From the NCBI GenBank assembly GCA_964392085.1, contig CAYMOV010000001.1:3566-67565 (forward strand): 64,000 bases of DNA, in the 5' to 3' direction. The stretch comes from an uncultured bacterium. Lineage in GTDB: Bacteria > Oederibacteriota > Muellerivitia > Muellerivitales > Muellerivitaceae. The position numbers and the translations under genes are program-made. The notes below the pieces were generated by a model. That model saw only the letters and a program-made list of their open reading frames with translations, was not told the DNA's origin and ran no database searches. Shown piece after piece: positions 33,111 through 50,447 of the stretch. Within the stretch, counting starts at the first letter, position 1, and each line of letters opens with the position of its first letter.

Positions 33111-33335
33111 GTGCCCCAGGACGGCTTTGAGATTGTCTTCGAGGGGTCGTCCTTCGAAGCTTCGGTGGTGAGGGGGAAGCTGGAGTCCGAAGGACTCCAC
33201 CCCCAGCTCTGGGACGACAACATCTCAAACCTCCTTCCCATGACCGCTGTTTCGCCTGGCCATTTCGGCGTGGTGAAGGTGGCGGTGCCATATTCCGAAG
33301 CGGATTCAGCCATTGATAAATTAAGCCGATTATAA
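33111..33335 (+). CDS. DUF2007-like small protein (74 aa; putative signal-transducing protein family, PII-like fold).
   Basis: IVFEGSSFEASVVRGKLESEGL...VKVAVPYSEADSAIDKL pattern typical of DUF2007. Starts 2 nt after the previous stop. Confidence 0.5.
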   Translation: MPQDGFEIVFEGSSFEASVVRGKLESEGLHPQLWDDNISNLLPMTAVSPGHFGVVKVAVPYSEADSAIDKLSRL

Positions 33336-33354
33336 AGAGAGCGCGGGGTTTTCC

Positions 33355-33717
33355 TTGGATGCATCCAGTCCAAACGAATTGGATTTCCAGAGTTATATAA
33401 CCGTTTATAAGGGCGTCGAATTCGAGGCTGATTTAATACTGGGCCGAATAAACGCCGAGGGGCTACGTTGCGTTAAGTTTGAGGAACCCGGACTAATTAA
33501 TCCGGGCAGAAGAACACTCAATACATTTTGTGTTTCCGTTCATCCAGACGATTGTCGTCAAGCGGAAGAGTTATTGGGTGATTCACTTGTACAACCGTTA
33601 ACTCATCTATCCGACGGGATGGATGGTGAAAGTCGCAATTCCCCGATGTTCATTGTCGTTTATCTGGCGGGATTGTGCTTGGCGTTTTTATTATATTTTC
33701 TGGTGTTCAGCCGTTAG
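33355..33717 (+). CDS. DUF2007-like small protein with a C-terminal TM helix (120 aa), in a lower-GC segment.
   Basis: ITVYKGVEFEADLILGRINAEGL pattern paralogous to 33111..33335. C-terminal hydrophobic helix MFIVVYLAGLCLAFLLYFLVF. Visibly AT-richer than the flanks. Confidence 0.5.
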   Translation: MDASSPNELDFQSYITVYKGVEFEADLILGRINAEGLRCVKFEEPGLINPGRRTLNTFCVSVHPDDCRQAEELLGDSLVQPLTHLSDGMDGESRNSPMFIVVYLAGLCLAFLLYFLVFSR

Positions 33718-33718
33718 G

Positions 33719-34504
33719 TCAATTAACTGTTTGCCGGATCCGTTCAATCTTTGTGGCCTTGCCGGTCAAGGGTTCCACCGACACCACCACCCCCTGGAAC
33801 CAGTAGGGAAGGTCCTCGGCCCCTTCGAAACGCGCCGGGGCGCTGGTGAGGAACCGTTTGATGGCGATCTCCTTCTTGACCCCGATGACCGAGGCGATGC
33901 AGCCCGTCATGCCGATGTCGGTCAAGTAGGCCGTGCCGCCCGGTAGGATCTCCTCGTCGGCGGTCATGACGTGGGTATGGGTGCCGGTCACGGAAGAAAC
34001 GCGCCCGTCCAGGTACCAGCCCATGGCCCGCTTCTCGCTGGTGGCCTCCGCGTGCATATCCACCAGGATGACCTTGGCCCGCCCCCCGATCTCCGCCAGG
34101 GCCCTTTCCCCTGCCTTAAAAGGGCAATCCAGGGGGAAGTTCATCCCCACCCGTCCCATAAGGTTCATGACGGCCACCGGGGTTCCCTTGCAGTCGAAAA
34201 CCCCCACGCCGGAACCTGGGTTCTCGGAAGGGTAGTTGTGGGGCCTGAGCAGGCGGGAGTCCTTGCCGATGATCTCGTGGACTTCCTTCTTGGCCCAAAT
34301 GTGGTTTCCTGTGGTGACGACGTCCACCCCCTGGTCGATCAGGAAGCGGAACTGGTCGGGTTGGATCCCCACGACTCCTGCCATGTTCTCGCCGTTGGCC
34401 ACGATGAAATCGATGGAATAGTCCGTCCTGATCTTCTTGAGGACTTGATGGACGGCGTGGCGTCCGGGCTTGCCGCAGATGTCGCCGATCAGGAGGATGT
34501 TCAT
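33719..34504 (-). CDS. ymdB: YmdB-family metallophosphoesterase (2',3'-cyclic-nucleotide phosphodiesterase-like).
   Basis: MNILLIGDICGKPGR..., GNHIWAKKE and other calcineurin-like metal-ligand motifs. Confidence 0.8.
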   Translation of the reverse strand: MNILLIGDICGKPGRHAVHQVLKKIRTDYSIDFIVANGENMAGVVGIQPDQFRFLIDQGVDVVTTGNHIWAKKEVHEIIGKDSRLLRPHNYPSENPGSGVGVFDCKGTPVAVMNLMGRVGMNFPLDCPFKAGERALAEIGGRAKVILVDMHAEATSEKRAMGWYLDGRVSSVTGTHTHVMTADEEILPGGTAYLTDIGMTGCIASVIGVKKEIAIKRFLTSAPARFEGAEDLPYWFQGVVVSVEPLTGKATKIERIRQTVN

Positions 34505-34833
34505 GGGGTTCCCCGGGTTGGAGTAAAAGCGGGCCTATTTAAGACGGGATTGAACGTCTTTACAAGGCTTCAACGTGATTTTCGAACACCTGGTTCACGA
34601 TGAAAAAGTGTGGATTTGGTTAAGTGAACCATTACTCCGGTCGCCAAAAACCATGCAACCCCATAGCGTATTTGAGATTAAACCTAACTTGGTGATCTTG
34701 AGTTTGGGGGTTTAACTTTTGTTTCAGTACCGAAGTTCTTTATGAACTTGGTGACCTTGGTGGTGAAAAAGTCTAGGGCTTTATTATGTGCCCGTCATTC
34801 TTCGTGTTCTTTGTAGTGAGGGGGCTTCTCCTT

Positions 34834-35418
34834 TTAAGCGCACATCCACAAACCCTCGTCGGTGAGGATCCAATGGACCTTTTGGTCCTTGGTCACCTGG
34901 GGCACCTCGTCCACCACCTGGAAGGCGTAGCCGATGCCGATCCGCTGGACCCCCGGACGGAACAGGGGGATGGATTGGTCGTAGAACCCCTTGCCGAACC
35001 CCACCCGGCCCCCCATGGGGTCGAAGGCCGTCCCCGGGACCAACACCAGGTCGATTTCCTTCTCGGACACGATGGGGGCCGTCGCGGGAGGTTCGGGGAT
35101 CCCGAAAGCTCCAGGCGTCAATGCGGCGAGAGTTGGGACCTCACAGAAAACCATGGACTGGGGGTCCCTTTGGGTACGTGGAAGGACCAAGGACCTTCCG
35201 GATTCCAGCAGGGACCGGAGGAGCGGTTCGGTCGGGATCTCACCCCGGGCCCCGATGAAGCCCGCGACGGTCTTCACGGCGGCCAAATTCGGGAACTTCT
35301 GGAGGGAAGGCCAGAGTCCCTTGGCGGCTTCCTCGGCTTTGGAGGGGCTGACGGCCAACCGGCGGTTGATCATTTCACCGCGGAGTTGGACTTTCCGTTG
35401 TTCAGGGGTTGGAGTCAT
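34834..35418 (-). CDS. 5-formyltetrahydrofolate cyclo-ligase.
   Basis: LVPGTAFDPMGGRVGFGKGFYD motif typical of the MTHFS/YgfA family. Confidence 0.8.
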   Translation of the reverse strand: MTPTPEQRKVQLRGEMINRRLAVSPSKAEEAAKGLWPSLQKFPNLAAVKTVAGFIGARGEIPTEPLLRSLLESGRSLVLPRTQRDPQSMVFCEVPTLAALTPGAFGIPEPPATAPIVSEKEIDLVLVPGTAFDPMGGRVGFGKGFYDQSIPLFRPGVQRIGIGYAFQVVDEVPQVTKDQKVHWILTDEGLWMCA

Positions 35419-36763
35419 GGCGAAGGTCCTTGGCAGTGGTGGGTTCCAGTTGCTTCAGATGTTCGAGCCATGACTTAATCTTCGCTTCATATCCCAAGGT
35501 GGTCGGGACGTAATAAGTCCCGGCCCCCAACATGTAGTCTTGTTTCACGTAGTGATCCGGATGGTCGTGGGCGTATTCGTATCCCTGGCCGTGCCCGAGG
35601 GTCTTGGCCCCGGCGTAATGGCCGTCCTGGAGGTGAGGGGGAACCTCGACGGTTTTGCCTTTTTTGACGTCCTCGGTGGCCTTCTCCAACCCTATGTAGG
35701 AGGCGTTGCTCTTGGGGGCGCAGGCCAGGTACACCGTGGCTTGGGCCAGGGGGATCCGGCCCTCGGGAAGGCCCAAGAACTCAAAGGCCTGTTGGGCGGC
35801 CACGGCGATCGGCAGGGCCTGGGGATCGGCGTTGCCCACGTCCTCGCTGGCCAATATCACCAAGCGGCGGGCGATGAAGCGGGGGTCCTCGCCGGCGTAG
35901 AGCATCTTCGCCAGCCAAAAAAGGGCGGCGTCAGGATCGGAACCCCGGACGCTCTTGATGAAAGCCGAGATGGTGTCGTAATGCTGGTCGCCGGTGCCGT
36001 CATAGGCGATGGACCGGCGTTGGATGGATTCTTCCGCGACGGACAGGTCGAACAGGATGGTCCCATCCTCGCCGGGGGGCGTCGTGAGGGCCCCGACCTC
36101 CAGGGCGTTCAACAGCGTGCGGCCGTCGCCTGAACAGGACTTCACGAGGTGGCGCTTGGCCTCGGGCGTGAGGGTGATCCTCATTTGGCCCAAGCCCCGC
36201 TCCCCATCCGCCAGTGCACGGTCCAACAACAGCTCCAGGTGCTTGTCCTCCAGGGGCCGCAATTCACAGACCCTGGATCGCGAGAGGAGGGCGCTGTTGA
36301 GCGAGAAGAACGGGTTCTGGGTGGTGGCCCCGACCAGGAGGATGATGCCCTGTTCCATTGAGGGCAAGAGGGCGTCCTGTTGGCTCTTGTTGAAGTGGTG
36401 GATCTCGTCGAGGAAAAGGACGGTGGGTTTCCCGTAGAGGCGGCGGTTCTCGGCGGCCTCCTCCAGGACCCGGCGGACCTCGGCGACCCCCGAGGTGACG
36501 GCGTTGAGGGGCGTGAAGCGCCCCTGGGTCAATCGAGCCACGAGCCGGGCGAAGGCTGTCTTGCCGACTCCGGGGGGGCCGTAAAGGACGAGGGAGACGA
36601 AACGACGGGACTCCAGGAGCCGTCTGAGGAGTTTTCCGGGACCGGTCAGGTGCTCTTGGCCCACGTACTCGTCCAAGGTCCGGGGGGACATCCGGATGGC
36701 GAGGGGCCGGTTAGGGCTGTCTTGGGTCGCGTTCTCGAAAAGGTCCATAAAAAAATTGGCCAC
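35402..36763 (-). CDS. rarA: Replication-associated recombination protein A (RarA/MgsA AAA+ ATPase).
   Basis: GPPGVGKT Walker A, LFLDEIHHFNKSQQDALL Walker B/sensor, conserved C-terminal MgsA domain. Confidence 0.9.
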   Translation of the reverse strand: MANFFMDLFENATQDSPNRPLAIRMSPRTLDEYVGQEHLTGPGKLLRRLLESRRFVSLVLYGPPGVGKTAFARLVARLTQGRFTPLNAVTSGVAEVRRVLEEAAENRRLYGKPTVLFLDEIHHFNKSQQDALLPSMEQGIILLVGATTQNPFFSLNSALLSRSRVCELRPLEDKHLELLLDRALADGERGLGQMRITLTPEAKRHLVKSCSGDGRTLLNALEVGALTTPPGEDGTILFDLSVAEESIQRRSIAYDGTGDQHYDTISAFIKSVRGSDPDAALFWLAKMLYAGEDPRFIARRLVILASEDVGNADPQALPIAVAAQQAFEFLGLPEGRIPLAQATVYLACAPKSNASYIGLEKATEDVKKGKTVEVPPHLQDGHYAGAKTLGHGQGYEYAHDHPDHYVKQDYMLGAGTYYVPTTLGYEAKIKSWLEHLKQLEPTTAKDLRHDSNP

Positions 36764-37006
36764 CGCCTGTGCCGGTTGGAAAGGTACTTTTTTGAGGCCT
36801 GACTATGTCAGGTGGGCGACCGCATGGCCGGTTCATCGACTCCCGCAGGAGCCACTCCCCGGAAATTAAAGCCGCCCGTTTAAAGTTATGGCTCAAAATT
36901 TCCCGCCCCAAGGTCGAGCACCGCAGAGGGCCGATGGATATTCTGGGGCGGTGCCCGAAAGGTGTCAAGTCGCTCCCTAACCGACAAAACCGTCGGGAGT
37001 CATGCG

Positions 37007-37038
37007 CTTGACAAATCATCCCGATTCGGGTTGTCAAG
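37007..37038. promoter_or_regulatory. Perfect 8-bp inverted repeat CTTGACAA-N16-TTGTCAAG in the rarA/glgP divergent intergenic region.
   Basis: Read directly. A related TTGTCAA...GACAA element occurs at 74-90. Confidence 0.3.
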
Positions 37039-37105
37039 GGTCCGGGCCTCGGTGAAAATATCAGGATTCCAAGGGCCGTTGTACGGCCGGGGGATGGGGC
37101 AGATG

Positions 37106-37363
37106 CCCATGATGGTACGTACCTTTCGTTTGCCCGGTTGGGCGACCTTTCTCCTGGTCCTGGCCGCGTTGGCCCTGATCCCAGTGGCCCTGGTCCTGGC
37201 GGTTGGGGTGGGGGCCTTGGCGTTGGTGGGTGGCGTCGTCGGGGCCCTGGTAGGGCCCAAGCGACGCGAAATCCCGCCTCCCCACCGAATGGACCCAGGT
37301 CAAATACCCGAACATTCCGGACAGGTACTCGAAGCCGAATACGAGGTCAAAGATGAACTTTAA
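37106..37363 (+). CDS. Possible small membrane protein (about 85 aa) upstream of and overlapping the glgP start.
   Basis: Hydrophobic Ala/Leu/Val-rich stretch of about 40 aa. GGGGATGGGG upstream of the ATG. No recognisable family. Could be a non-coding leader. Confidence 0.25.
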   Translation, partial: PMMVRTFRLPGWATFLLVLAALALIPVALVLAVGVGALALVGGVVGALVGPKRREIPPPHRMDPGQIPEHSGQVLEAEYEVKDEL

Positions 37364-39830
37364 GCTGATCGACGCCCTCCGGGGCAAGGCCGATTCCACC
37401 GTGGGTCCCCTGCGGATCCGGGACGCCTTCGTCAGCAACCTGAAGTACCGGCTGGTCAAGGAAGCCCAGACCGCCACCGAATACGACCGTTACCTCAGCC
37501 TCGCCTACGCCCTTTGGGAACGCCTGGTGGAGAATTGGCTGGCCACGCAAAAGACCTACCACGAGAAGCGGGCCAAGCGGGTCTATTACCTTTCGCTCGA
37601 ATTCCTCATGGGCCGAACCCTGGGGAACACCCTGATCAACCTGAGGGAATGGAACCACGCCACCCAGGCCCTGGACGAACTGGGCTTGAACCTTGAGGAG
37701 ATCCGGGAGATCGAACCGGACGCGGGGTTGGGCAACGGCGGTTTGGGCCGCCTGGCGGCCTGCTTCATGGATTCCCTGGCCACCCTCGAGATCCCCGCCT
37801 ACGGCTACGGCATCCGTTACGACTACGGCATCTTCCGGCAGAAGATCGTTCAGGGGAACCAGGTGGAGGAGCCCGACGAGTGGCTGGGCCGCACCAACCC
37901 CTGGGAAGTGGCCCGTCCGGAGTACACCTTCCGGGTGAAGTTCGGGGGCCGTTGCGCCAAACGGAAACACGCCGACGGCCGGGAGATCTGGGAATGGATC
38001 AGCGACGACGACGTCCTGGCGATGGCCTATGACACCCCGATCCCAGGGTACGGCCTCCGGACGGTCAACAACCTCCGGCTTTGGAGCGCGAAGGCCACCG
38101 AAGAGTTCGAGCTGGACTATTTCAACAAGGGCAACTATTTCGCGGCCACCTCCAAGAAGACCCAGACCGAAAGCATCTCCAAGGTCCTGTACCCCAACGA
38201 CAACAGCCCCGAGGGACGGGAGCTCCGGCTTAAGCAGCAATACTTTTTCGTGTCCGCCTCACTGCAGGACATCATGCGCCGGTTCAAGCGCGAGCGAAGC
38301 AACCTGAGGGAACTGCCGGACGCCGTGGCCATGCAGTTGAACGACACCCACCCCTCGATCGCCGTGGCTGAACTTATGCGCATCCTGGTGGACGAGGAAG
38401 GTTTGGCTTGGGACGTGGCCTGGGACCTGACCCAACGCACCTTGGCCTACACCAACCATACCCTCCTTCCCGAGGCCCTCGAGAAGTGGCCCCGGGGCCT
38501 CTTTGAGAAGCTCCTTCCGAGGCACCTGATCCTCATCCAGGACATCAACGCCAAGTTCCTGAAGGATGTGGCGGCCAAGTACCCCGGGGACACCGATCGG
38601 ATGCGCCGCATGTCCCTGTTCGAGGAAGGGCACGACCCCCATATCCGGATGGCGCACTTGGCCATTTTGGGGAGCCATTCCACCAACGGCGTTTCGGCGC
38701 TCCATAGCGACCTGTTGAAGAACTCCGTTTTGCCTGATTTCTACGCCATGTTCCCGGACCGTTTCAACAACAAGACCAACGGAATCACCCAGCGGCGCTG
38801 GCTCCTGAAGGCCAATTCGGGACTGGCCGCCCTCATCTCCTCCAAGATCGGGGAGGGTTGGATCACCGACCTTTCCCAGTTGTCGAAGCTGGTCAAGTAC
38901 TCGGAGGACCCCGACTTCCTGTCCCAATGGCGGGCGATCAAGCGGGAAAACAAGGTCCGGTTGGCCAAGGTCATCGGCGACGAGTTGCGCCAGGTCGTGG
39001 ACCCGGACTCCCTCTTCGACGTACAGGTCAAGCGTATCCACGAGTACAAGCGCCAACTCCTCTGCGCGCTCCATGTCCTGGCCCTCTACAACCGCATCAA
39101 GGCCGACCCGACGGTCCAGGTCACCCCCCGGACGGTGATGTTCGGCGGCAAGGCCGCCCCGGGTTATTTCAAGGCCAAGCTCATCATCAAGTTCATCGGC
39201 GCCCTGTCGGAGTTGATCAACAGCGACCCGGACATGAAGGGCAAGCTGACGGTCCTGTTCCTCCCCAATTATCGGGTGTCCCTCGCCGAGAAGATCATGC
39301 CGGCCAGCGACCTGTCCGAGCAGATCTCCACCGCGGGCAAGGAGGCCTCGGGGACGGGCAACATGAAGTTCGCCCTGAACGGCGCCCTCACCATCGGAAC
39401 CCTGGACGGGGCCAACATCGAGATCCTTGACGAGGTGGGGAAGGACAACATCTTCATCTTCGGCCTCAAGACCGAGGAGGTCGGGGCGCTCCGAAACAAG
39501 GGCTACAACCCGAGGGATTACATCGAGCGTTCCCCTGAGCTCAAGGGCGTGATGAGCCTGATCTCCAGCGGCTTCCTGTCCGCCGACAACCCGGGTCTCT
39601 TCGCCCCCTTGGTGGACGACCTGTACAACCACGATGAATACATGTTGATGGCTGATTTTGACGCCTACGTGGATTGCCAGGACAAGGTGTCCGCGGCTTA
39701 CCGCGACCAGGACCAATGGGCCAAGATGTCGGTGCTGAACGTGGCCCACATGGGATTTTTCTCCAGCGACCGGACCATCGCGGAATACTGCAAGGAAATC
39801 TGGGACGTCCACCCGATCCACATCGATTGA
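37353..39830 (+). CDS. glgP: Glycogen/alpha-glucan phosphorylase.
   Basis: 825 aa. Conserved EASGTGNMKFALNGALTIGTLDGANIE pyridoxal-phosphate region. Confidence 0.92.
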   Translation: MNFKLIDALRGKADSTVGPLRIRDAFVSNLKYRLVKEAQTATEYDRYLSLAYALWERLVENWLATQKTYHEKRAKRVYYLSLEFLMGRTLGNTLINLREWNHATQALDELGLNLEEIREIEPDAGLGNGGLGRLAACFMDSLATLEIPAYGYGIRYDYGIFRQKIVQGNQVEEPDEWLGRTNPWEVARPEYTFRVKFGGRCAKRKHADGREIWEWISDDDVLAMAYDTPIPGYGLRTVNNLRLWSAKATEEFELDYFNKGNYFAATSKKTQTESISKVLYPNDNSPEGRELRLKQQYFFVSASLQDIMRRFKRERSNLRELPDAVAMQLNDTHPSIAVAELMRILVDEEGLAWDVAWDLTQRTLAYTNHTLLPEALEKWPRGLFEKLLPRHLILIQDINAKFLKDVAAKYPGDTDRMRRMSLFEEGHDPHIRMAHLAILGSHSTNGVSALHSDLLKNSVLPDFYAMFPDRFNNKTNGITQRRWLLKANSGLAALISSKIGEGWITDLSQLSKLVKYSEDPDFLSQWRAIKRENKVRLAKVIGDELRQVVDPDSLFDVQVKRIHEYKRQLLCALHVLALYNRIKADPTVQVTPRTVMFGGKAAPGYFKAKLIIKFIGALSELINSDPDMKGKLTVLFLPNYRVSLAEKIMPASDLSEQISTAGKEASGTGNMKFALNGALTIGTLDGANIEILDEVGKDNIFIFGLKTEEVGALRNKGYNPRDYIERSPELKGVMSLISSGFLSADNPGLFAPLVDDLYNHDEYMLMADFDAYVDCQDKVSAAYRDQDQWAKMSVLNVAHMGFFSSDRTIAEYCKEIWDVHPIHID

Positions 39831-39982
39831 AACGGAAAAGCCCCGAATCAAAGCTGATTTGACCACGGAGGGCACGGGGTTCACGGAGTATTAATTTTAG
39901 CCAAGTCATCCTATCAACATGTGATTGGCTCCGTGACCTCCGCTTTCCCCGTGGTTCAAACGTTGTATTTCCGGAGTAGGAA

Positions 39983-40297
39983 ATGGATCCCAGCAAACTG
40001 CCCTTGATCCTCGAACTCCTCCAGGACGATCCCGATGACCCCGTCCTCTTATTGAATGCCGGTAAGATCCTCCTCCAAACCCAACAGGCCGAGGAGGCCT
40101 TGATCCACCTCCGGAGGCTCGCCGAGAAGCACCCCACGAACATGGCGGTCTACCGCGAATTGGGCGCCGCCTTCCTCGCGAGGGGGGAGACCCGATCGGC
40201 GAGGCAGGCTTTTGAGATGGGACGTCAGGTCTCGCTGGCCGCCCGGGACCCCTCGGCCGCCTCGGAATATGAATCCCTGATCGGCCAATGCGTCTGA
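39983..40297 (+). CDS. Small TPR-like protein (104 aa).
   Basis: Helical repeats (ALIHLRRLAEKHP, AVYRELGAAFLARGE, ARQAFEMGRQ). GGAG RBS. Overlaps the start of the downstream GT-C gene by 10 nt. Confidence 0.45.
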   Translation: MDPSKLPLILELLQDDPDDPVLLLNAGKILLQTQQAEEALIHLRRLAEKHPTNMAVYRELGAAFLARGETRSARQAFEMGRQVSLAARDPSAASEYESLIGQCV

Positions 40298-42399
40298 CCC
40301 CGGGCAGGTCCATGGGCCTCGCGTTCGCAGGTGTCCTTTTGGGCCAAGCGGTCCTTATGGGCTCATCGACCGTTTGGACCCTGTTCCCCGGCATATTTTT
40401 ATTTGCCGTCTCGGCTTATCTCCTTCACGGCCAAAGCACGGCCCCGGTACCGGCCCCACCCCGCTCGGTGGAGTTCATCGCATTCATCCTCCTGCTCATC
40501 GTTTCCCTGGCCGTCCACCTCAGCGCCCTCCAGCAACAACTCCCGCCTGGGCTCTTCCGAGACTTCGGGTTGACCGGCCTTTTAGCCCTGCGGGTCCTCC
40601 GGGAAGGATGGAACCCTTATGGGGTTTTCAATCCGACCTTGGTGGACTATCCCATCCTTTTCAGCCTCTTGGCCGGTTGGTTCAAATTCTTCCGCGCCGA
40701 TGTTTTTAATCTCCTGCTTTTCTTCCTACTTGCCGATTGGATTGGCTTGGCCGCCTTCTTCTACGTCTTCCGTCGCCTGGCGGGCCCCACCCAAGGATTG
40801 GCTGCGATGCTTCTCTTCGCCTTCATGCGGTGGCACCTCATTTTGGGTTCCACGGGGCACCCCCACCCCGTGGCCCTTTCCCTGGTCGGAATTGGTTTGG
40901 CTTTTGTCTTGGCGGCTGAGGGGAAGCGTTGGCCCCTCGCCCTGTTGGGAGGGATATCCCTCGGTATGGCTCCCTGGATCTACCAAGGCGCGAAGGCCGT
41001 TCCGATCGGGCTCGCCTTGTGGTTGGGTTGGGAAACTTACCGGGACAGGGGATTCCTGAAGCGGAACCAAAAGAGGTTCTTGGCGGCCGGGATCGGGTTT
41101 CTCCTGGTGGCCGGGCCCATGACTATCCGGTGGGTCGGGGAAGGGATCGTCGTGAACCGGGAAGGCCAAGTGGCCCTGGATTGGACACATCAGACTGCGG
41201 GCTCGCTGTTGGCCCACGCCGGATCCTATCTTTTGATGTTCAACCGCCTGGGCGACGCCAATCCCATGGAAAGCATACCGGGAAAGCCCCTGATGGACGC
41301 CATCGGGGGAGCCGCCTTCGCCCTGGGGCTGGGCCTATGGCTTTTTGCGCCGAAAAGACGGATCGCCGCCTGCGGCTTAATCGGCCTATCGGTGGGGTGC
41401 CTTCCCGGATTGCTGTCGAAGGACGCGGCCCATGCTGGTCGGACCTTTGAGATGGCCCCCTGGGTCGCCTTGGCGGCATCCGAGGGTTGGATGGCCTTTT
41501 GGCGGTGGGCGCGGGAGCGCAAGGTTCGCCTGCGCCAACTGGCGCAGGGAGGGCTAGTCCTATTATTGCTTGTCAGTGCCTGGATGAATTGGCGCCAATG
41601 GCGATATGAATGGGCGGGTCAGCCAGGCCTATGGGACCTATTTGACGGCGCCGAGACGAAGTTGGGCAACGACGTCGCCCAATGTCCAGTCGGCATGGAG
41701 TTTCGGGTGTCCAACCAATTCCTCCATCACTTCACCTTCAAGTATCTCGCCTATGACCTCCTCAAGGACTGCAAGCCCCTCGATCCATCGGATTTCCTTA
41801 ACCCGCCTGCTCCTGGTGCCCAAAGGGTCCGGTTCGTTTTGGATCCTGCCCAATCGGCCTATCGGGGCGTTTTATTGACGGAATTTCCGAAGGCGCTGGT
41901 CGAAAGCGTCAACAACCCCAAAGGCGAACCGATCGCGTATCAGATCGACGTGCCAAGCGGCGACTTCAAGCCTTTGAAAAAGGACTACTTCGGCCTTCGG
42001 GCCAGGTTCTTCCTCCGGACGCCCCAAGGGGACAGGTTGTTCTTGGACCGGGTGGACCGGGTGGTCAATTACACCAACGGGAACGACTTCCCGAGGCCGC
42101 CGGGGGAAGAAGGCGTTGTGGTGGTCCAATGGACCGGTTGGATCGACGCCCCAAAGACGGGGGACTACAGCCTGGGGGTGGACGCGACCGGGCCCTTCAA
42201 GTTGAAGGTGGACGGCAAAACCCAGGCAACTCCCGAAGGATTGGGGTTGATCCCTCTGCACATAATGAAAGGCAAGTATCTGTTTGAACTGGATTACTTG
42301 CCGAAAAGGGAGTGGACTGAAAAACTTAATCTGACCTTTGGAATTGTTGAACAAACTGGCATTGACGATTTAACGCTGATTGGGTTCGCCACAAAATAG
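40288..42399 (+). CDS. GT-C-fold polytopic membrane glycosyltransferase-like protein with a C-terminal PA14 domain (703 aa).
   Basis: About 12 N-terminal TM helices with an Arg/Asp first loop, resembling ArnT/PMT-type GT-C enzymes. The C-terminal roughly 150 aa carries a PA14-like block (VVVVQWTGWIDAPKTGDYSLGVDATGPFKLKVDG). The last roughly 50 codons are AT-rich. Confidence 0.55.
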   Translation: MRLTPGRSMGLAFAGVLLGQAVLMGSSTVWTLFPGIFLFAVSAYLLHGQSTAPVPAPPRSVEFIAFILLLIVSLAVHLSALQQQLPPGLFRDFGLTGLLALRVLREGWNPYGVFNPTLVDYPILFSLLAGWFKFFRADVFNLLLFFLLADWIGLAAFFYVFRRLAGPTQGLAAMLLFAFMRWHLILGSTGHPHPVALSLVGIGLAFVLAAEGKRWPLALLGGISLGMAPWIYQGAKAVPIGLALWLGWETYRDRGFLKRNQKRFLAAGIGFLLVAGPMTIRWVGEGIVVNREGQVALDWTHQTAGSLLAHAGSYLLMFNRLGDANPMESIPGKPLMDAIGGAAFALGLGLWLFAPKRRIAACGLIGLSVGCLPGLLSKDAAHAGRTFEMAPWVALAASEGWMAFWRWARERKVRLRQLAQGGLVLLLLVSAWMNWRQWRYEWAGQPGLWDLFDGAETKLGNDVAQCPVGMEFRVSNQFLHHFTFKYLAYDLLKDCKPLDPSDFLNPPAPGAQRVRFVLDPAQSAYRGVLLTEFPKALVESVNNPKGEPIAYQIDVPSGDFKPLKKDYFGLRARFFLRTPQGDRLFLDRVDRVVNYTNGNDFPRPPGEEGVVVVQWTGWIDAPKTGDYSLGVDATGPFKLKVDGKTQATPEGLGLIPLHIMKGKYLFELDYLPKREWTEKLNLTFGIVEQTGIDDLTLIGFATK

Positions 42400-42421
42400 G
42401 TTCAAGGAATATATTCAACAA

Positions 42422-42784
42422 ATGAAACCACCAATCATCCTTGATGAAAATGGGAATTTAATGTTTTTTAAATCCTCAGATTCGGTTGAAGCCTACATCG
42501 AATTAATTGACGTAAAGAATAACGAGTATCAAGTCTACGATTCGGAGGGCAAAACATTGGACTTATTTGTTGAGCTCTATAAAAGGAAATGGTTGGGAAT
42601 TACGCTCATGTCGTTTGAAATCGTTAAAATCAGGATGTCGACTTTAAATAACAACAGTCAAGAACAACTAAAACCAAAGATGCTGAAGCTTTTAAAAGAC
42701 GGCAGCCGGGATGCCGAAAAACTTGATGCTCTATCTTTTAAGGAATTGGTTGATCGGTGCTTTGAAAATTACCCAGAAAAGTGA
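42422..42784 (+). CDS. Orphan hypothetical protein (about 120 aa) in a strongly AT-rich island.
   Basis: Open frame with the ATG at 42422 (track ORF from 42380). Composition roughly 35-40% GC by eye against more than 60% for the flanks. No recognisable family. Confidence 0.5.
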   Translation: MKPPIILDENGNLMFFKSSDSVEAYIELIDVKNNEYQVYDSEGKTLDLFVELYKRKWLGITLMSFEIVKIRMSTLNNNSQEQLKPKMLKLLKDGSRDAEKLDALSFKELVDRCFENYPEK

Positions 42785-42851
42785 CAGGTTCGTAAAAACT
42801 ATTTAACGCGAAATAACATCAGGATTTATTCGTGGTCGCCATGGCGAATAC

Positions 42852-44024
42852 TCAACGCACTTCCAAGACCTGATCGATCTTGTGGAGCAGCGACTCCAGT
42901 TGGTCCGGCGGGGGGAGGAACGACAGCTGGGGGACGTCCACCTTGGCGGCGGTCACCTGGTCGCGCTTGAGCTCCTCCTGGAGCGACCTGATGGAGGCGC
43001 GGGACCGGTCCATCTCGGCCTGGAGGTTCTCGACGGCGCGGCGGGCCGATTCCATTTCCTGCTGGTTCCGCTCATAGGAATTCTTCATCGTGGCGGTCTT
43101 GCCGTCGTCCACCCGGCCTTGAAGTTCCTGGACCCGGGCCTTCAGGCTGTTGACTTCAGACTGGGATGCCTCCACCTGCAGTTGGACGTCCTTCTGCTTC
43201 AGCTGGTTCTGCTCGGCGGCCTGGATACGCTCCTCAGCCCTTCGTTTAGCGGTCTCGGCCGCCTTCTGGGCTTCCTCAATCTCCATCTTGGACAGTTCCA
43301 GGTCGTCGCTGAGGCTCATGGCCTTCTTGGCGGCGGCCTCCAGGGCGGATTGGCCCTCGCGGCGGACGCCCTCCACTTCCTGTTCCTTCACGCGGATCTT
43401 TTCGGCGGCGTCCCGGCGGGCGCCCTCGACCTCGGCCTTGGCGGACTCGGCGGCCTTACGGGACTCCTCCAAGTGCTTCTGGGAGGAGTTGAGCTGGTCG
43501 CGGAGGGATTGCAGTTCACGCGAGGAGGATTGGGTCAAGGTCTCGCGTTCCTTTTTCAGATCTTCCCGCAGGGCCTGGAGTTCCTTCTCGGAGGATTGCT
43601 TCAACCCCTCCCGTTCCTTCTGGATCTCTTGGCGGACGGAAGCGAGTTCCTGGCGGGCGGTCTCGAGTGCCTTCTTGGTGTCGGCTGTATCCTGGTCGTG
43701 CTTCTGGAGGGTTTCCTTCAGCTCGAGGGAATGCTTGAGGGAGCCCTCGGAGGACTTGCGCATCTCCAGGAGGTTGCGCTCGGCCACCTCCAGGAGCTTC
43801 TGGGCCTCCTCCCGCGCCTTCTCGGCGCGGTGGTACTCGTCGGCGATGTTCATGGCGGCCAGGATGGCCACCTTGGCCGCGGGGGCCGAGGACTTCTTGC
43901 CGATCTCGTTCATCTTGCCGTCGACGTACTTGGACAGGTCCGTGATGTAGTGGGGGTCGGCGTCGCCCTTGAGGGTGTATTCGTTCCCGTAAATGTTCAC
44001 GGTCACCGACTTCTTGTCGCTCAT
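42852..44024 (-). CDS. zapA: ZapA-domain cell-division protein with a long C-terminal coiled-coil (390 aa).
   Basis: N-terminal VTVNIYGNEYTLKGDADPHYITDLSKYVDGKMNEI...AILAAMNIADE matches the ZapA fold signature. About 290 aa of heptad-rich E/K/Q/R/A coiled coil follow. Confidence 0.7.
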   Translation of the reverse strand: MSDKKSVTVNIYGNEYTLKGDADPHYITDLSKYVDGKMNEIGKKSSAPAAKVAILAAMNIADEYHRAEKAREEAQKLLEVAERNLLEMRKSSEGSLKHSLELKETLQKHDQDTADTKKALETARQELASVRQEIQKEREGLKQSSEKELQALREDLKKERETLTQSSSRELQSLRDQLNSSQKHLEESRKAAESAKAEVEGARRDAAEKIRVKEQEVEGVRREGQSALEAAAKKAMSLSDDLELSKMEIEEAQKAAETAKRRAEERIQAAEQNQLKQKDVQLQVEASQSEVNSLKARVQELQGRVDDGKTATMKNSYERNQQEMESARRAVENLQAEMDRSRASIRSLQEELKRDQVTAAKVDVPQLSFLPPPDQLESLLHKIDQVLEVR

Positions 44025-48242: not shown

Positions 48243-50447
48243 ATGGACCGAGAAATGGAAGAAAAAGCCCTCAAACCCATCAGGGTTGTATTGGGATACG
48301 TCCAATATATTCTTCTGGCCGCCGGGGCCTGGTACGGCCTCCACGGCCAATGGTCCACGATGATCATCACCTTGGGCCTCAGCGCCCTGTGCCATCAGGT
48401 CCTGACCGCGCCCCCCGGACACCCTGACCGGCCAACGGAGCCCCTTCCGGCCTCCAGCCCGGTCCAGTGGGGATGGATCGCCGTGGCGCTCGTCGCCGTT
48501 TACTACGCGGCACCCCTCCTGCAGCAACCCGATTACAACTGGTTGATGGGGCTCCCCCTGTGGCTCTTGTCCGGCTGGGCCCTGTATCGAGCCTTTCCGG
48601 AGGGCCTTCCGGTCATGGATTCCCAGGACATCCCGGTCCGGCCCGTCCGGGGCCAGATGTCCGGGATCATCCTCGGTGTCCTCGTCCTCCTGACCTTCGC
48701 GGCCGTCAAAGTGGTTTTTTTCTTCAAGGGCACGAATGTCCCATTTCCCCTGGAGGCGGTGAAACCCGGGGTCTCGCTCATCTTTGGAACCGCGCTCGCG
48801 ATAATGCTTTTGAGGTGGAAACGCCCGGAGGGCAAGCCGGCCCAGGCCCTTCCCCGTGAAGCCCTTTGGGTCGCCCTTCTGATCTTGGTCGCGGCGCTCC
48901 TTCGCTACCCTTTCATCCACCACCTCTTCGCGGGATTCCAGGGCGACGAAGCCAACGACGCCTTTGACGGCGTCAATGCCATGACGATGTCGAACGGCGT
49001 GGATTCCCCCTTTAAGACATCCTGGGGCGGTTCCCCCTCCATGCCGTATTTTTTCGCCGCGGAGTTCCTCAAGGTCTTCGGGATCAACCTCATCGGTTAC
49101 CGCCTGTACACCCTGACGGCTTGTTTCATCTCGGTTTGGGTTTTCTTCAAGTGGGTCCGGTTCTATTTCAGCGCCAGGGCCTCCCTGGTGGCCTCCTTCC
49201 TGCTGGCCATCTCCTGGTGGCACCTATACAACTCCTTCGCGGTCTTCAACAACAACATCACCTTCCTGATGGAAGTGACGTCGTTCTATTTCCTGGAAAA
49301 GGCCCTCCGAAGCGGGCGCAAGGTCGATTTCTGGTGGACCGGGGTCTTTTTCGCGACCTCCGTTCAAACCTACATCTCCGGCCGTTTGGTCTCGGTCATG
49401 GGGTTCACGGCGGTCCTGGCCTGCGTCCTCATCGCCGGGCGCTGGACCTTCGTGAAGACCTATTGGAAGAACCTCCTTCTGGCCGCCCTGTCTTACCTGG
49501 TCTTCATTTCGCCCTTCCTCTGGTACATCCTCCATTTCCCCCGGGAATTCCTTGGTCGGGCCAAGTACCTGAACATTTTCACCGAAGTCCAACGTACCGG
49601 TGATCATTGGTTGCCCTTCAAGACCGGGGCCTTCACATTGCTGTCCCCGTTTTGGACGACTCCCAGCCCCGACCGGCGGTTCATGATCCCGGGGGATTCC
49701 ATGGTGGACGGCTTTTCGGCCTTCCTCTTCCTGACGGGTTTGGTCCTGGCGTTTTTCACCCTTCGCCGTCGGGTCAGTTGGCTGGGTTTTTGCGGGTTAT
49801 TCTTCGGCATGTTGACCAACGCCCTCGCGATCCAGGGTATGAATCCGGATACCGCCTACATCAACGCCATGCGCCTGTTCCTGGCGCTGCCCTTCATCCT
49901 TTTCCTCGCGGCTCGGGGAGCCGAATGGTACTTAGGGATGTTGGATTCCTACGGAAAAGCCGGCAAACTTTTGGTCCGCGTCTTCCTCATCGTGGGTTTT
50001 TCCATAGCGGGATATTACAACATCCACCTTTATTACTTTAGGCTCGAGGATCGGCCCTCGGATTGGTGCGCCGTGGGATACCACGAAGTGGAGTTGGGGA
50101 AGATCTACCAGAGGGACCTTCCTACCGCACATTTGATGATCGATTGCGACGCTTATAACGGTGTCGTCGATTTCTTCACGGGGCTTCGTCAGAAAAATTT
50201 CGACGTCATCACCGGAAACAAGGTGGACTTCCCGATCCTGTACCCGGTGACCCGCGACGTGGAGATCTTCATGCAGCCGAACAAGCTCAAGAACGTCCAG
50301 GACGACTGCCTCAAATGGTACCCCAAGGCGGTCTGGACGGATTACAAGAATCCCTGGGGGGAATTGTACGCCCGCAGTGTCCGGATCAGTCGAGAGGACA
50401 TCCAGGCCCTTCAAAACGGAAAGACAGTCGGGGATCCCCTCCCCTGA
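48243..50447 (+). CDS. GT-C-fold membrane glycosyltransferase (ArnT/PMT GT39/GT83-like), about 735 aa.
   Basis: Multiple TM helices. First-loop GDEANDAFDG acidic motif typical of PMT/ArnT-type GT-C enzymes. Large C-terminal soluble domain. Start ambiguous (TTG 48180, ATG 48243 or ATG 48255). Confidence 0.6.
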   Translation: MDREMEEKALKPIRVVLGYVQYILLAAGAWYGLHGQWSTMIITLGLSALCHQVLTAPPGHPDRPTEPLPASSPVQWGWIAVALVAVYYAAPLLQQPDYNWLMGLPLWLLSGWALYRAFPEGLPVMDSQDIPVRPVRGQMSGIILGVLVLLTFAAVKVVFFFKGTNVPFPLEAVKPGVSLIFGTALAIMLLRWKRPEGKPAQALPREALWVALLILVAALLRYPFIHHLFAGFQGDEANDAFDGVNAMTMSNGVDSPFKTSWGGSPSMPYFFAAEFLKVFGINLIGYRLYTLTACFISVWVFFKWVRFYFSARASLVASFLLAISWWHLYNSFAVFNNNITFLMEVTSFYFLEKALRSGRKVDFWWTGVFFATSVQTYISGRLVSVMGFTAVLACVLIAGRWTFVKTYWKNLLLAALSYLVFISPFLWYILHFPREFLGRAKYLNIFTEVQRTGDHWLPFKTGAFTLLSPFWTTPSPDRRFMIPGDSMVDGFSAFLFLTGLVLAFFTLRRRVSWLGFCGLFFGMLTNALAIQGMNPDTAYINAMRLFLALPFILFLAARGAEWYLGMLDSYGKAGKLLVRVFLIVGFSIAGYYNIHLYYFRLEDRPSDWCAVGYHEVELGKIYQRDLPTAHLMIDCDAYNGVVDFFTGLRQKNFDVITGNKVDFPILYPVTRDVEIFMQPNKLKNVQDDCLKWYPKAVWTDYKNPWGELYARSVRISREDIQALQNGKTVGDPLP

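Follow-up and report, generated by a model that had tools for sequence, protein, structure and literature searches.

Protection by orphan Rhs immunity proteins has been demonstrated, SMDB11_2280 of Serratia marcescens Db10 being a stand-alone example (PMC10539506), and the slot directly after the C-terminus (CT) of a polymorphic toxin is the canonical position of the cognate immunity protein (Poole et al., 2011, PMC3150448; PMC10539506). Clonal frames exchange replacement flexible genomic islands through homologous recombination (Lopez-Perez, Martin-Cuadrado & Rodriguez-Valera, 2014, PMC4033161), and substitution peaks, mostly synonymous, are found at their borders (PMC4033161). Here we describe a low-GC islet of about 0.6 kb in a 64-kb stretch of contig CAYMOV010000001.1 from an uncultured bacterium (the window, whose numbering is used throughout), which takes in the 3′ end of a gene for a membrane glycosyltransferase with a PA14 domain and a small open reading frame (ORF) of 120 codons. 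The islet would be a member of two known kinds, orphan immunity genes and small replacement islets, and what is modestly new is the uncurated immunity-type family to which the ORF belongs and the uncurated Rhs toxin domain that accompanies its relatives. We consider it probable, with moderate confidence, that this strain-variable replacement islet was acquired from low-GC DNA and that its ORF belongs to the orphan genes of immunity type.

The islet (42245-42850) has a GC content of 37.8%, as compared with 60.6% for the whole window, and in 606-bp sliding windows (mean 60.6%, SD 3.9%) it is the global minimum, about 6 SD low. In steps of 30 nt, the GC fraction falls from 0.60-0.67 to 0.40-0.43 at 42241-42270, stays between 0.27 and 0.50 up to 42850, and recovers between 42850 and 42900 to reach 0.73 by 42901. 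An earlier note on this DNA had placed, by eye, an abrupt break at about 42245 and a recovery at zapA, and the sliding-window calculation agrees with it at both ends. The glycosyltransferase gene (GT-C, PMT_2-type; 703 aa; 40288..42399, plus strand) enters the islet with its 3′ end, and is followed on the same strand by a 22-nt spacer (42400..42421) and by the gene for the 120-aa protein (42422..42784). A low-GC spacer (42785..42851) then leads to the stop codon of a convergent ZapA-domain gene (42852..44024, minus strand; 390 aa; Pfam ZapA, E=4.9e-12), which forms the right flank. Independent assemblies of different samples gave six contigs that contain the islet and both of its junctions at 99.5-99.9% identity (ENA ERZ27245399, ERZ27245408 and ERZ27245400; JGI 3300028556 and 3300028800; Logan SRR8465028). 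Across these six carriers there were no single-nucleotide polymorphisms (SNPs) inside the islet, and those found among them cluster in the 3′ end of zapA, at 42921-43005.

A different arrangement was found in a contig from JGI 3300028800 (L001), which aligns to the window without gaps from 34521 to 42264, where the alignment stops. In an ungapped profile, the identity is about 100% over 34521-40700, 84-86% over 40721-41520 and 98-99.5% over 41521-41920, and then drops from 85% to 74% over 41921-42260, toward the breakpoint. From 42261 to the stop codon it is 50% or less at the nucleotide level while the codons are still collinear, and beyond the stop the two sequences are unrelated. After its own tail, L001 carries a different small low-GC ORF (L001:7895-8185, cut by the contig end), for which no homologues were found. 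By eye this ORF encodes a multi-pass membrane protein (MKMDIQGFISGIVFSAIVLIY...), and it could be another immunity-type gene. Since L001 is about 100% identical upstream and has a different low-GC 3′ end and small ORF from 42262, the islet is one allele of a strain-variable replacement cassette made up of a PA14 tail and a small ORF. Both alleles occur in one sample, JGI 3300028800, in L001 and in an islet-carrying contig (L078), so that two co-occurring strains, identical for kilobases, differ by a 0.6-kb cassette, a small clean case of variation in gene content within a population of an uncultured soil or wetland bacterium.

The two alleles are the only ones known from the haplotype comparison, the metagenome scan having given only L001 and one islet contig. 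When the alternative allele was sought from the zapA side, the exact ZapA protein was not on record, and a 98-aa neighbour used as a second probe on that side retrieved only short or window-type contigs. Among the GTDB representatives, homologues of the GT-C/PA14 gene reach at most 29% identity (the nearest 28-29%) and show no synteny with zapA. The comparison of orthologous loci that the earlier note had proposed gave an alternative C-terminus in L001 and no syntenic locus in the GTDB representatives.

Codon-based divergence between the window and L001 follows the same profile. The synonymous divergence (dS) is 0 for codons 1-144, 0.47 for codons 145-411 (ratio of non-synonymous to synonymous divergence, dN/dS, 0.12), 0.04 for codons 412-544 and 0.48 for codons 545-658 (dN/dS 0.20). 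In codons 659-703 it is saturated (proportion of synonymous differences, pS, 0.83; dN 0.70), and 28 of the 45 residues differ. On the nucleotide sequence, the first diverged tract corresponds to 40720..41520 (plus strand; 84-86% identity) and the second, in the PA14 domain, to 41920..42261 (plus strand; 85% falling to 74%), the haplotype-specific low-GC end of the gene being its last 45 codons and stop (42262..42399, plus strand). The earlier note was right that the composition break coincides with a point of cassette exchange, given that L001 differs from 42262 onward. Its estimate of roughly 50 codons for the part of the gene inside the islet has to be corrected to the last 45 (42262-42396), as placed by the L001 breakpoint, and it had not seen that the variable region reaches far into the gene as a recombination mosaic. 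We also noted that the two tracts with a dS of about 0.47 are under purifying selection and are separated by a near-identical tract of 400 bp.

This pattern is close to that of replacement islands. The same site holds non-homologous content in near-identical strains, with two alleles known, the islet adjoins a glycosyltransferase for an exposed structure, and the left flank has a dS of 0.47-0.48 with a dN/dS of 0.12-0.20 against a dS of 0-0.04 elsewhere. On the right flank, there is only the SNP cluster in the zapA 3′ end among the carriers. Unlike those islands, the islet is about 0.6 kb long and has a single cargo ORF, with no multi-gene cluster for an exposed structure, its junction cuts inside a domain, and its cargo is of immunity type and not for glycan biosynthesis.

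The product of the GT-C gene has a Pfam PA14 match (PF07691; 29.8 bits, cut-off 24) over residues 587-645, corresponding to model positions 22-80, and a PMT_2/GT-C match of 22 bits, below the cut-off, whereas the homologues P0003, P0004 and P0006 score above it. Both the GT-C and the PA14 domains are carried by the homologues P0003-P0006. The C-terminal third of PA14 has no direct Pfam match in the window protein; it aligns (alignment A1) to P0005 and P0006, whose Pfam PA14 matches extend to model positions 145 and 139 of 147. Judged by this alignment, the 45 variable residues make up the final strands of PA14 and are not a toxin, in line with the suggestion of the earlier note that the replaced segment completes the PA14 domain. 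The last 45 residues of the window and L001 proteins are collinear and 38% identical, and the two tails are still recognizably homologous (45% over 38 aa, E=4e-9); they are each other's closest relatives, none closer having been found among 57 loci of distant homologues. The GC content at third codon positions (GC3) of the last 45 codons is 0.44 for the window allele and 0.42 for L001, as compared with 0.82 just upstream. L001 turns low in GC at the same codon as the window, and its tail has the same length.

The earlier note had likened the locus to the swapping of C-terminal toxin or variable-tip modules, and with homologous PA14 strands in both alleles this part of its proposal fails. There is a likeness to the exchange of CdiA-CT/CdiI and Rhs-CT/RhsI modules (Poole et al., 2011, PMC3150448), in that the sequence breaks off sharply toward the 3′ end of a large gene, and an allele-specific C-terminus and an allele-specific small ORF of lower GC follow. 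In contrast to that system, the variable part here is a 45-residue piece of a PA14 beta-sandwich, homologous between the alleles, with no autonomous toxin domain; no demarcation motif of the VENN or PxxxxDPxGL type lies at the junction; and the host protein is a GT-C enzyme and no delivery scaffold. Displaced CT/immunity remnants were also sought, and tblastn with both C-terminal alleles matched only the in-gene copy. A second PMT_2-type GT-C gene (48255-50447, plus strand; 730 aa) lies 6 kb away and is 22% identical over the C-terminal half; this paralogue was considered as donor of the tail and rejected, as it has no PA14 domain and is only 22% identical. Up to three GT-C/PA14 paralogues stand in tandem in distant relatives, of which L005 is one.

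A word-indexed homology search with the 120-aa ORF retrieved only the ORF itself, while an exhaustive phmmer (HMMER) search of 1.84 billion representatives at E<=1e-3 gave 457 homologous cluster representatives, nine of them at E<=1e-10 (9e-15 to 1e-10 for these nine best members). The homologues are mostly 110-125 aa long and align from residue 1, and for this reason the annotated ATG of the ORF is supported. An alignment of 70 sequences (A2) has the consensus MKxPIIxDExGDxxxFxSxxxAExYLEPIDVxNxEYxAYDSEGRxL, and the window ORF has its full length and retains every position invariant in the family (D30, P4, G11, E27, Y36, D40 and G43). With A2 as input, AlphaFold (AF2) gave a mean predicted local distance difference test (pLDDT) of 94.5 and a predicted template modelling score (pTM) of 0.85, as compared with a pLDDT of 47 from the single sequence. 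The predicted fold has an N-terminal beta-hairpin with short helices, a long beta-hairpin and a C-terminal helical bundle.

Pfam, NCBIfam and PADLOC gave no consistent match for the ORF or its family, and neither a PDB sequence profile nor Foldseek gave an informative match for the family. We conclude that this ORF is a genuine gene and that its family is uncurated. The earlier note had called it an orphan of no recognised family, which stands as far as the curated libraries go and falls with the 457 homologous representatives; the structure prediction it had asked for yielded a confident model and no informative structural match. No family member was found by tblastn in plasmid and phage collections or by a scan of viral contigs, and there was no sign of a phage or plasmid origin. 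In each of the nine copies compared (9/9), the family gene has a lower GC content than the DNA around it, by 2 points or less in the case of L080/L081, and the nearest relatives of the window ORF lie in Rhs loci of 39-46% GC.

The neighbourhoods of the family, inspected in about eight contexts out of the 457 representatives, point in about half of the cases to Rhs systems. In L070, a member and the end of the preceding protein overlap by 4 nt, this protein reading ...DPIGLVGGMNLYVYVGGNPVNAVDVEGL followed by about 110 aa; in L071-73, members come after RHS/HYR proteins; and in L074, the family is present twice in an orphan CT/immunity array behind a 1670-aa YD-shell Rhs protein. The upstream proteins match TIGR03696 (Rhs_assc_core), with the match ending at the DPxGL motif, and their CTs are homologous between L070 and L074 (54% identity over 69 aa, E=2e-24). 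These CTs share the motif R[LF]APFGNRT...PHYHRR...PGQGIGRHRPW...F.DRF (L070:86-421, L074:7554-8000 and L074:9691-10599), and no match for this Rhs C-terminal toxin domain was found in Pfam, NCBIfam or the PDB. Two further architectures were seen: in P0153, a ...DPWGL-CT module comes after a family member in one fused protein, and in P0024 the immunity-type domain is present three times in a tandem fusion. The window protein and the L074 member are 32% identical in pairwise alignment (E=3e-20), so that the window ORF is homologous in sequence to proteins that occupy the cognate immunity slot of one toxin domain family. The toxin/immunity lead of the earlier note was thus apt for the small ORF, whose relatives stand directly after Rhs toxin C-termini. 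As a separate observation, L074:7554-8363 and L074:9691-10962 are two nearly identical modules of toxin CT plus immunity gene within one Rhs orphan array. Lone copies among unrelated genes were found in L075, L079 and L080/L081, with housekeeping neighbours in L079 and L080.

Homologues of the ORF lie directly downstream of a toxin CT on the same strand, but the window gene does not, and tblastn at E<=10 detected neither an Rhs core nor a toxin CT in any reading frame of the window, nor a toxin-CT remnant in any frame of the islet. The window gene is therefore an immunity homologue without a cognate effector in the 64 kb. It resembles the orphan immunity genes of Rhs loci and type VI secretion systems (T6SS) in being a small homologue of proteins encoded after Rhs toxin CTs, in lacking its cognate toxin, in having a GC content below that of the host and in varying between strains. 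It differs from them in that it is not behind an Rhs/T6SS locus and is alone between a glycosyltransferase gene and zapA, in that its family and the corresponding toxin domain are absent from Pfam and NCBIfam, and in that protection by it is a prediction from homology. A further comparison is with acquired defence arrays, from which the window gene departs in being single, with no multi-gene array and no mobile element with a recombinase. Such acquired interbacterial defence arrays were reportedly described in Bacteroidales by Ross et al. in 2019. PMC12247911 is also cited for the arrays of this order.

AAGGAA (42404-42409) lies 13 nt ahead of the ATG of the small gene, and the gap to the upstream gene is 22 nt; from this arrangement, the small ORF is likely to be co-transcribed with the GT-C/PA14 gene. 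The single sigma-70-like match, at 42386-42415, is not above chance, no terminator-like site was found in 42785-42851, and Rfam gave no RNA family in the islet or the window. No integrase, flanking direct repeat or tRNA was found around the small gene, and at the islet edges, where the earlier note had suggested looking for direct repeats, there were only matches of chance size. The low-GC spacer after the ORF holds the perfect 12-nt palindrome that the earlier note had placed at 42829-42840; it exists (TCGCCATGGCGA), 7 nt further on, at 42836-42847. There are 22 perfect 12-nt palindromes in the window, and because of this the one in the spacer is unremarkable and statistically ordinary. A perfect 10-nt inverted match (42205-42214 and 42935-42944; AAGGTGGACG and CGTCCACCTT) lies about 40-90 nt outside the islet edges, and is probably coincidental, the chance expectation for 900 nt being about 0.4 matches of this kind.

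The reading that we prefer can be set out as follows. The islet, between the convergent GT-C/PA14 and zapA genes, would derive from low-GC DNA and would be exchanged by homologous recombination between clonal frames through its conserved flanks. The left recombination junction lies inside the PA14 domain, so that the last 45 codons travel with the islet and still encode the final PA14 strands. Its cargo would be an orphan immunity protein, with the toxin partner absent here, probably co-transcribed with the glycosyltransferase, and the protein may bind and neutralise an Rhs toxin of the APFGNRT/GRHRPW type delivered by a competitor. The activity against an Rhs toxin is predicted from homologous sequences, we infer the direction and mechanism of acquisition from composition and flanks, and the variation of the PA14 tip would be a passenger and not a selected trait.

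Several observations weigh against this account. Within 64 kb, no toxin, Rhs gene, integrase or repeat lies near the ORF, and immunity is for this reason read only from homologues at 30-40% identity. Of the roughly eight contexts inspected, no more than about half are Rhs loci. L001 stops 441 nt past the breakpoint and does not reach the right junction of the alternative allele. Both alleles have a homologous, collinear low-GC PA14 tail, for which import from an Rhs locus offers no simple explanation. Immunity specificity is usually narrow, and the window ORF may no longer match any toxin.

Two of the alternatives are kept alive by an oddity, namely that the low-GC tails of the two alleles are homologous and equally long. 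According to the first, the PA14 tip and the small gene form a functionally coupled cassette, their joint exchange being due to a joint function; the tip could, for example, determine which ligand or receptor the glycosyltransferase recognises, and the small protein could serve as its partner or as a second layer of defence. The link of the family to Rhs loci would then be one sign of a wider function. The two alleles do each pair a different tail with a different small ORF, beginning at the same codon of the gene and leaving its length the same, the 22-nt spacing suggests one transcript, and the tails are low in GC like their ORFs. We nevertheless consider this unlikely, since only two alleles are at hand, the small ORFs are unrelated (one soluble alpha/beta, the other membrane-type), no examined family member elsewhere adjoins a PA14 gene, and a junction within a flanking gene is the normal result of homologous exchange.

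According to the second, the segment is an old resident of low GC, vertically inherited in the clade and either very fast-evolving or maintained over a long time as a balanced polymorphism; it would not have been acquired horizontally in the recent past. That both alleles turn low in GC from the same codon, that the tails are mutually closest (E=4e-9, none closer among the 57 loci) and that divergence climbs gradually toward the junction are all consistent with such a history. A GC3 of 0.42-0.44 next to 0.82 is not expected from evolution in situ, however, the downstream ORFs are non-homologous, and the nearest relatives of the ORF lie in Rhs loci of 39-46% GC, which makes this explanation as improbable to us as the coupled cassette.

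A similarly low probability is given to another role for the small ORF, such as that of an antitoxin or a regulator, or to its being a decaying remnant, with no protection from Rhs toxins. The lone copies among housekeeping genes in L079 and L080, the lack of an informative structural match, the derivation of the immunity reading from sequence and an identity of only 30-40% to the Rhs-linked members would all be compatible with it. Against it, the ORF is full length with all family-invariant positions and has a confident model (pLDDT 94.5), and the family recurs after toxin CTs in independent loci with a conserved toxin domain.

Less probable still is a more ambitious version, to which we assign a very small chance, in which the PA14 strands and the immunity-type gene are a single exchangeable two-part defence cassette, the tip altering a surface glycan or a receptor that contact-dependent toxins (of Rhs type) or phages make use of, and the small protein neutralising what enters. 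If true, the cassette-swapping logic of polymorphic toxins would have been adopted by the target side of the conflict. Finally, an assembly or binning chimera joining unrelated low-GC DNA to a high-GC contig, which the evidently metagenomic origin of the window and the sharp composition shift at both ends might suggest, is effectively refuted, because the same sequence and both junctions are reproduced in six independent assemblies from ENA, JGI and Logan and the reading frame and PA14 domain run on across the left junction.

If the preferred reading of an orphan immunity gene in a replacement islet is correct, such a gene would lie outside any toxin or T6SS locus, which bears on how widely bacteria gather protection from the toxins of their rivals. 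Two families missing from Pfam and NCBIfam are involved, the 120-aa protein (at least 457 clusters, with a confident and novel-looking fold) and its partner Rhs CT (APFGNRT...PHYHRR...GQGIGRHRPW), and the cut within the PA14 domain means that recombination can reshape the tip of a surface enzyme at the same time.

Some minor observations concern the surroundings of the islet. The ZapA-domain protein of the right flank is unusually long at 390 aa, its ZapA match covering residues 7-91 only and the rest being charged and coiled-coil-like, and a further cluster of SNPs among strains was observed in its gene at 43620-43992. Upstream of the glycosyltransferase gene, a weaker low-GC dip (33300-33720; 0.44-0.46) lies over two small tandem ORFs, at 33111-33335 (74 aa) and 33355-33717 (120 aa, with a hydrophobic tail), and a second weaker dip (34500-34800; 0.40-0.46) is apparently intergenic.

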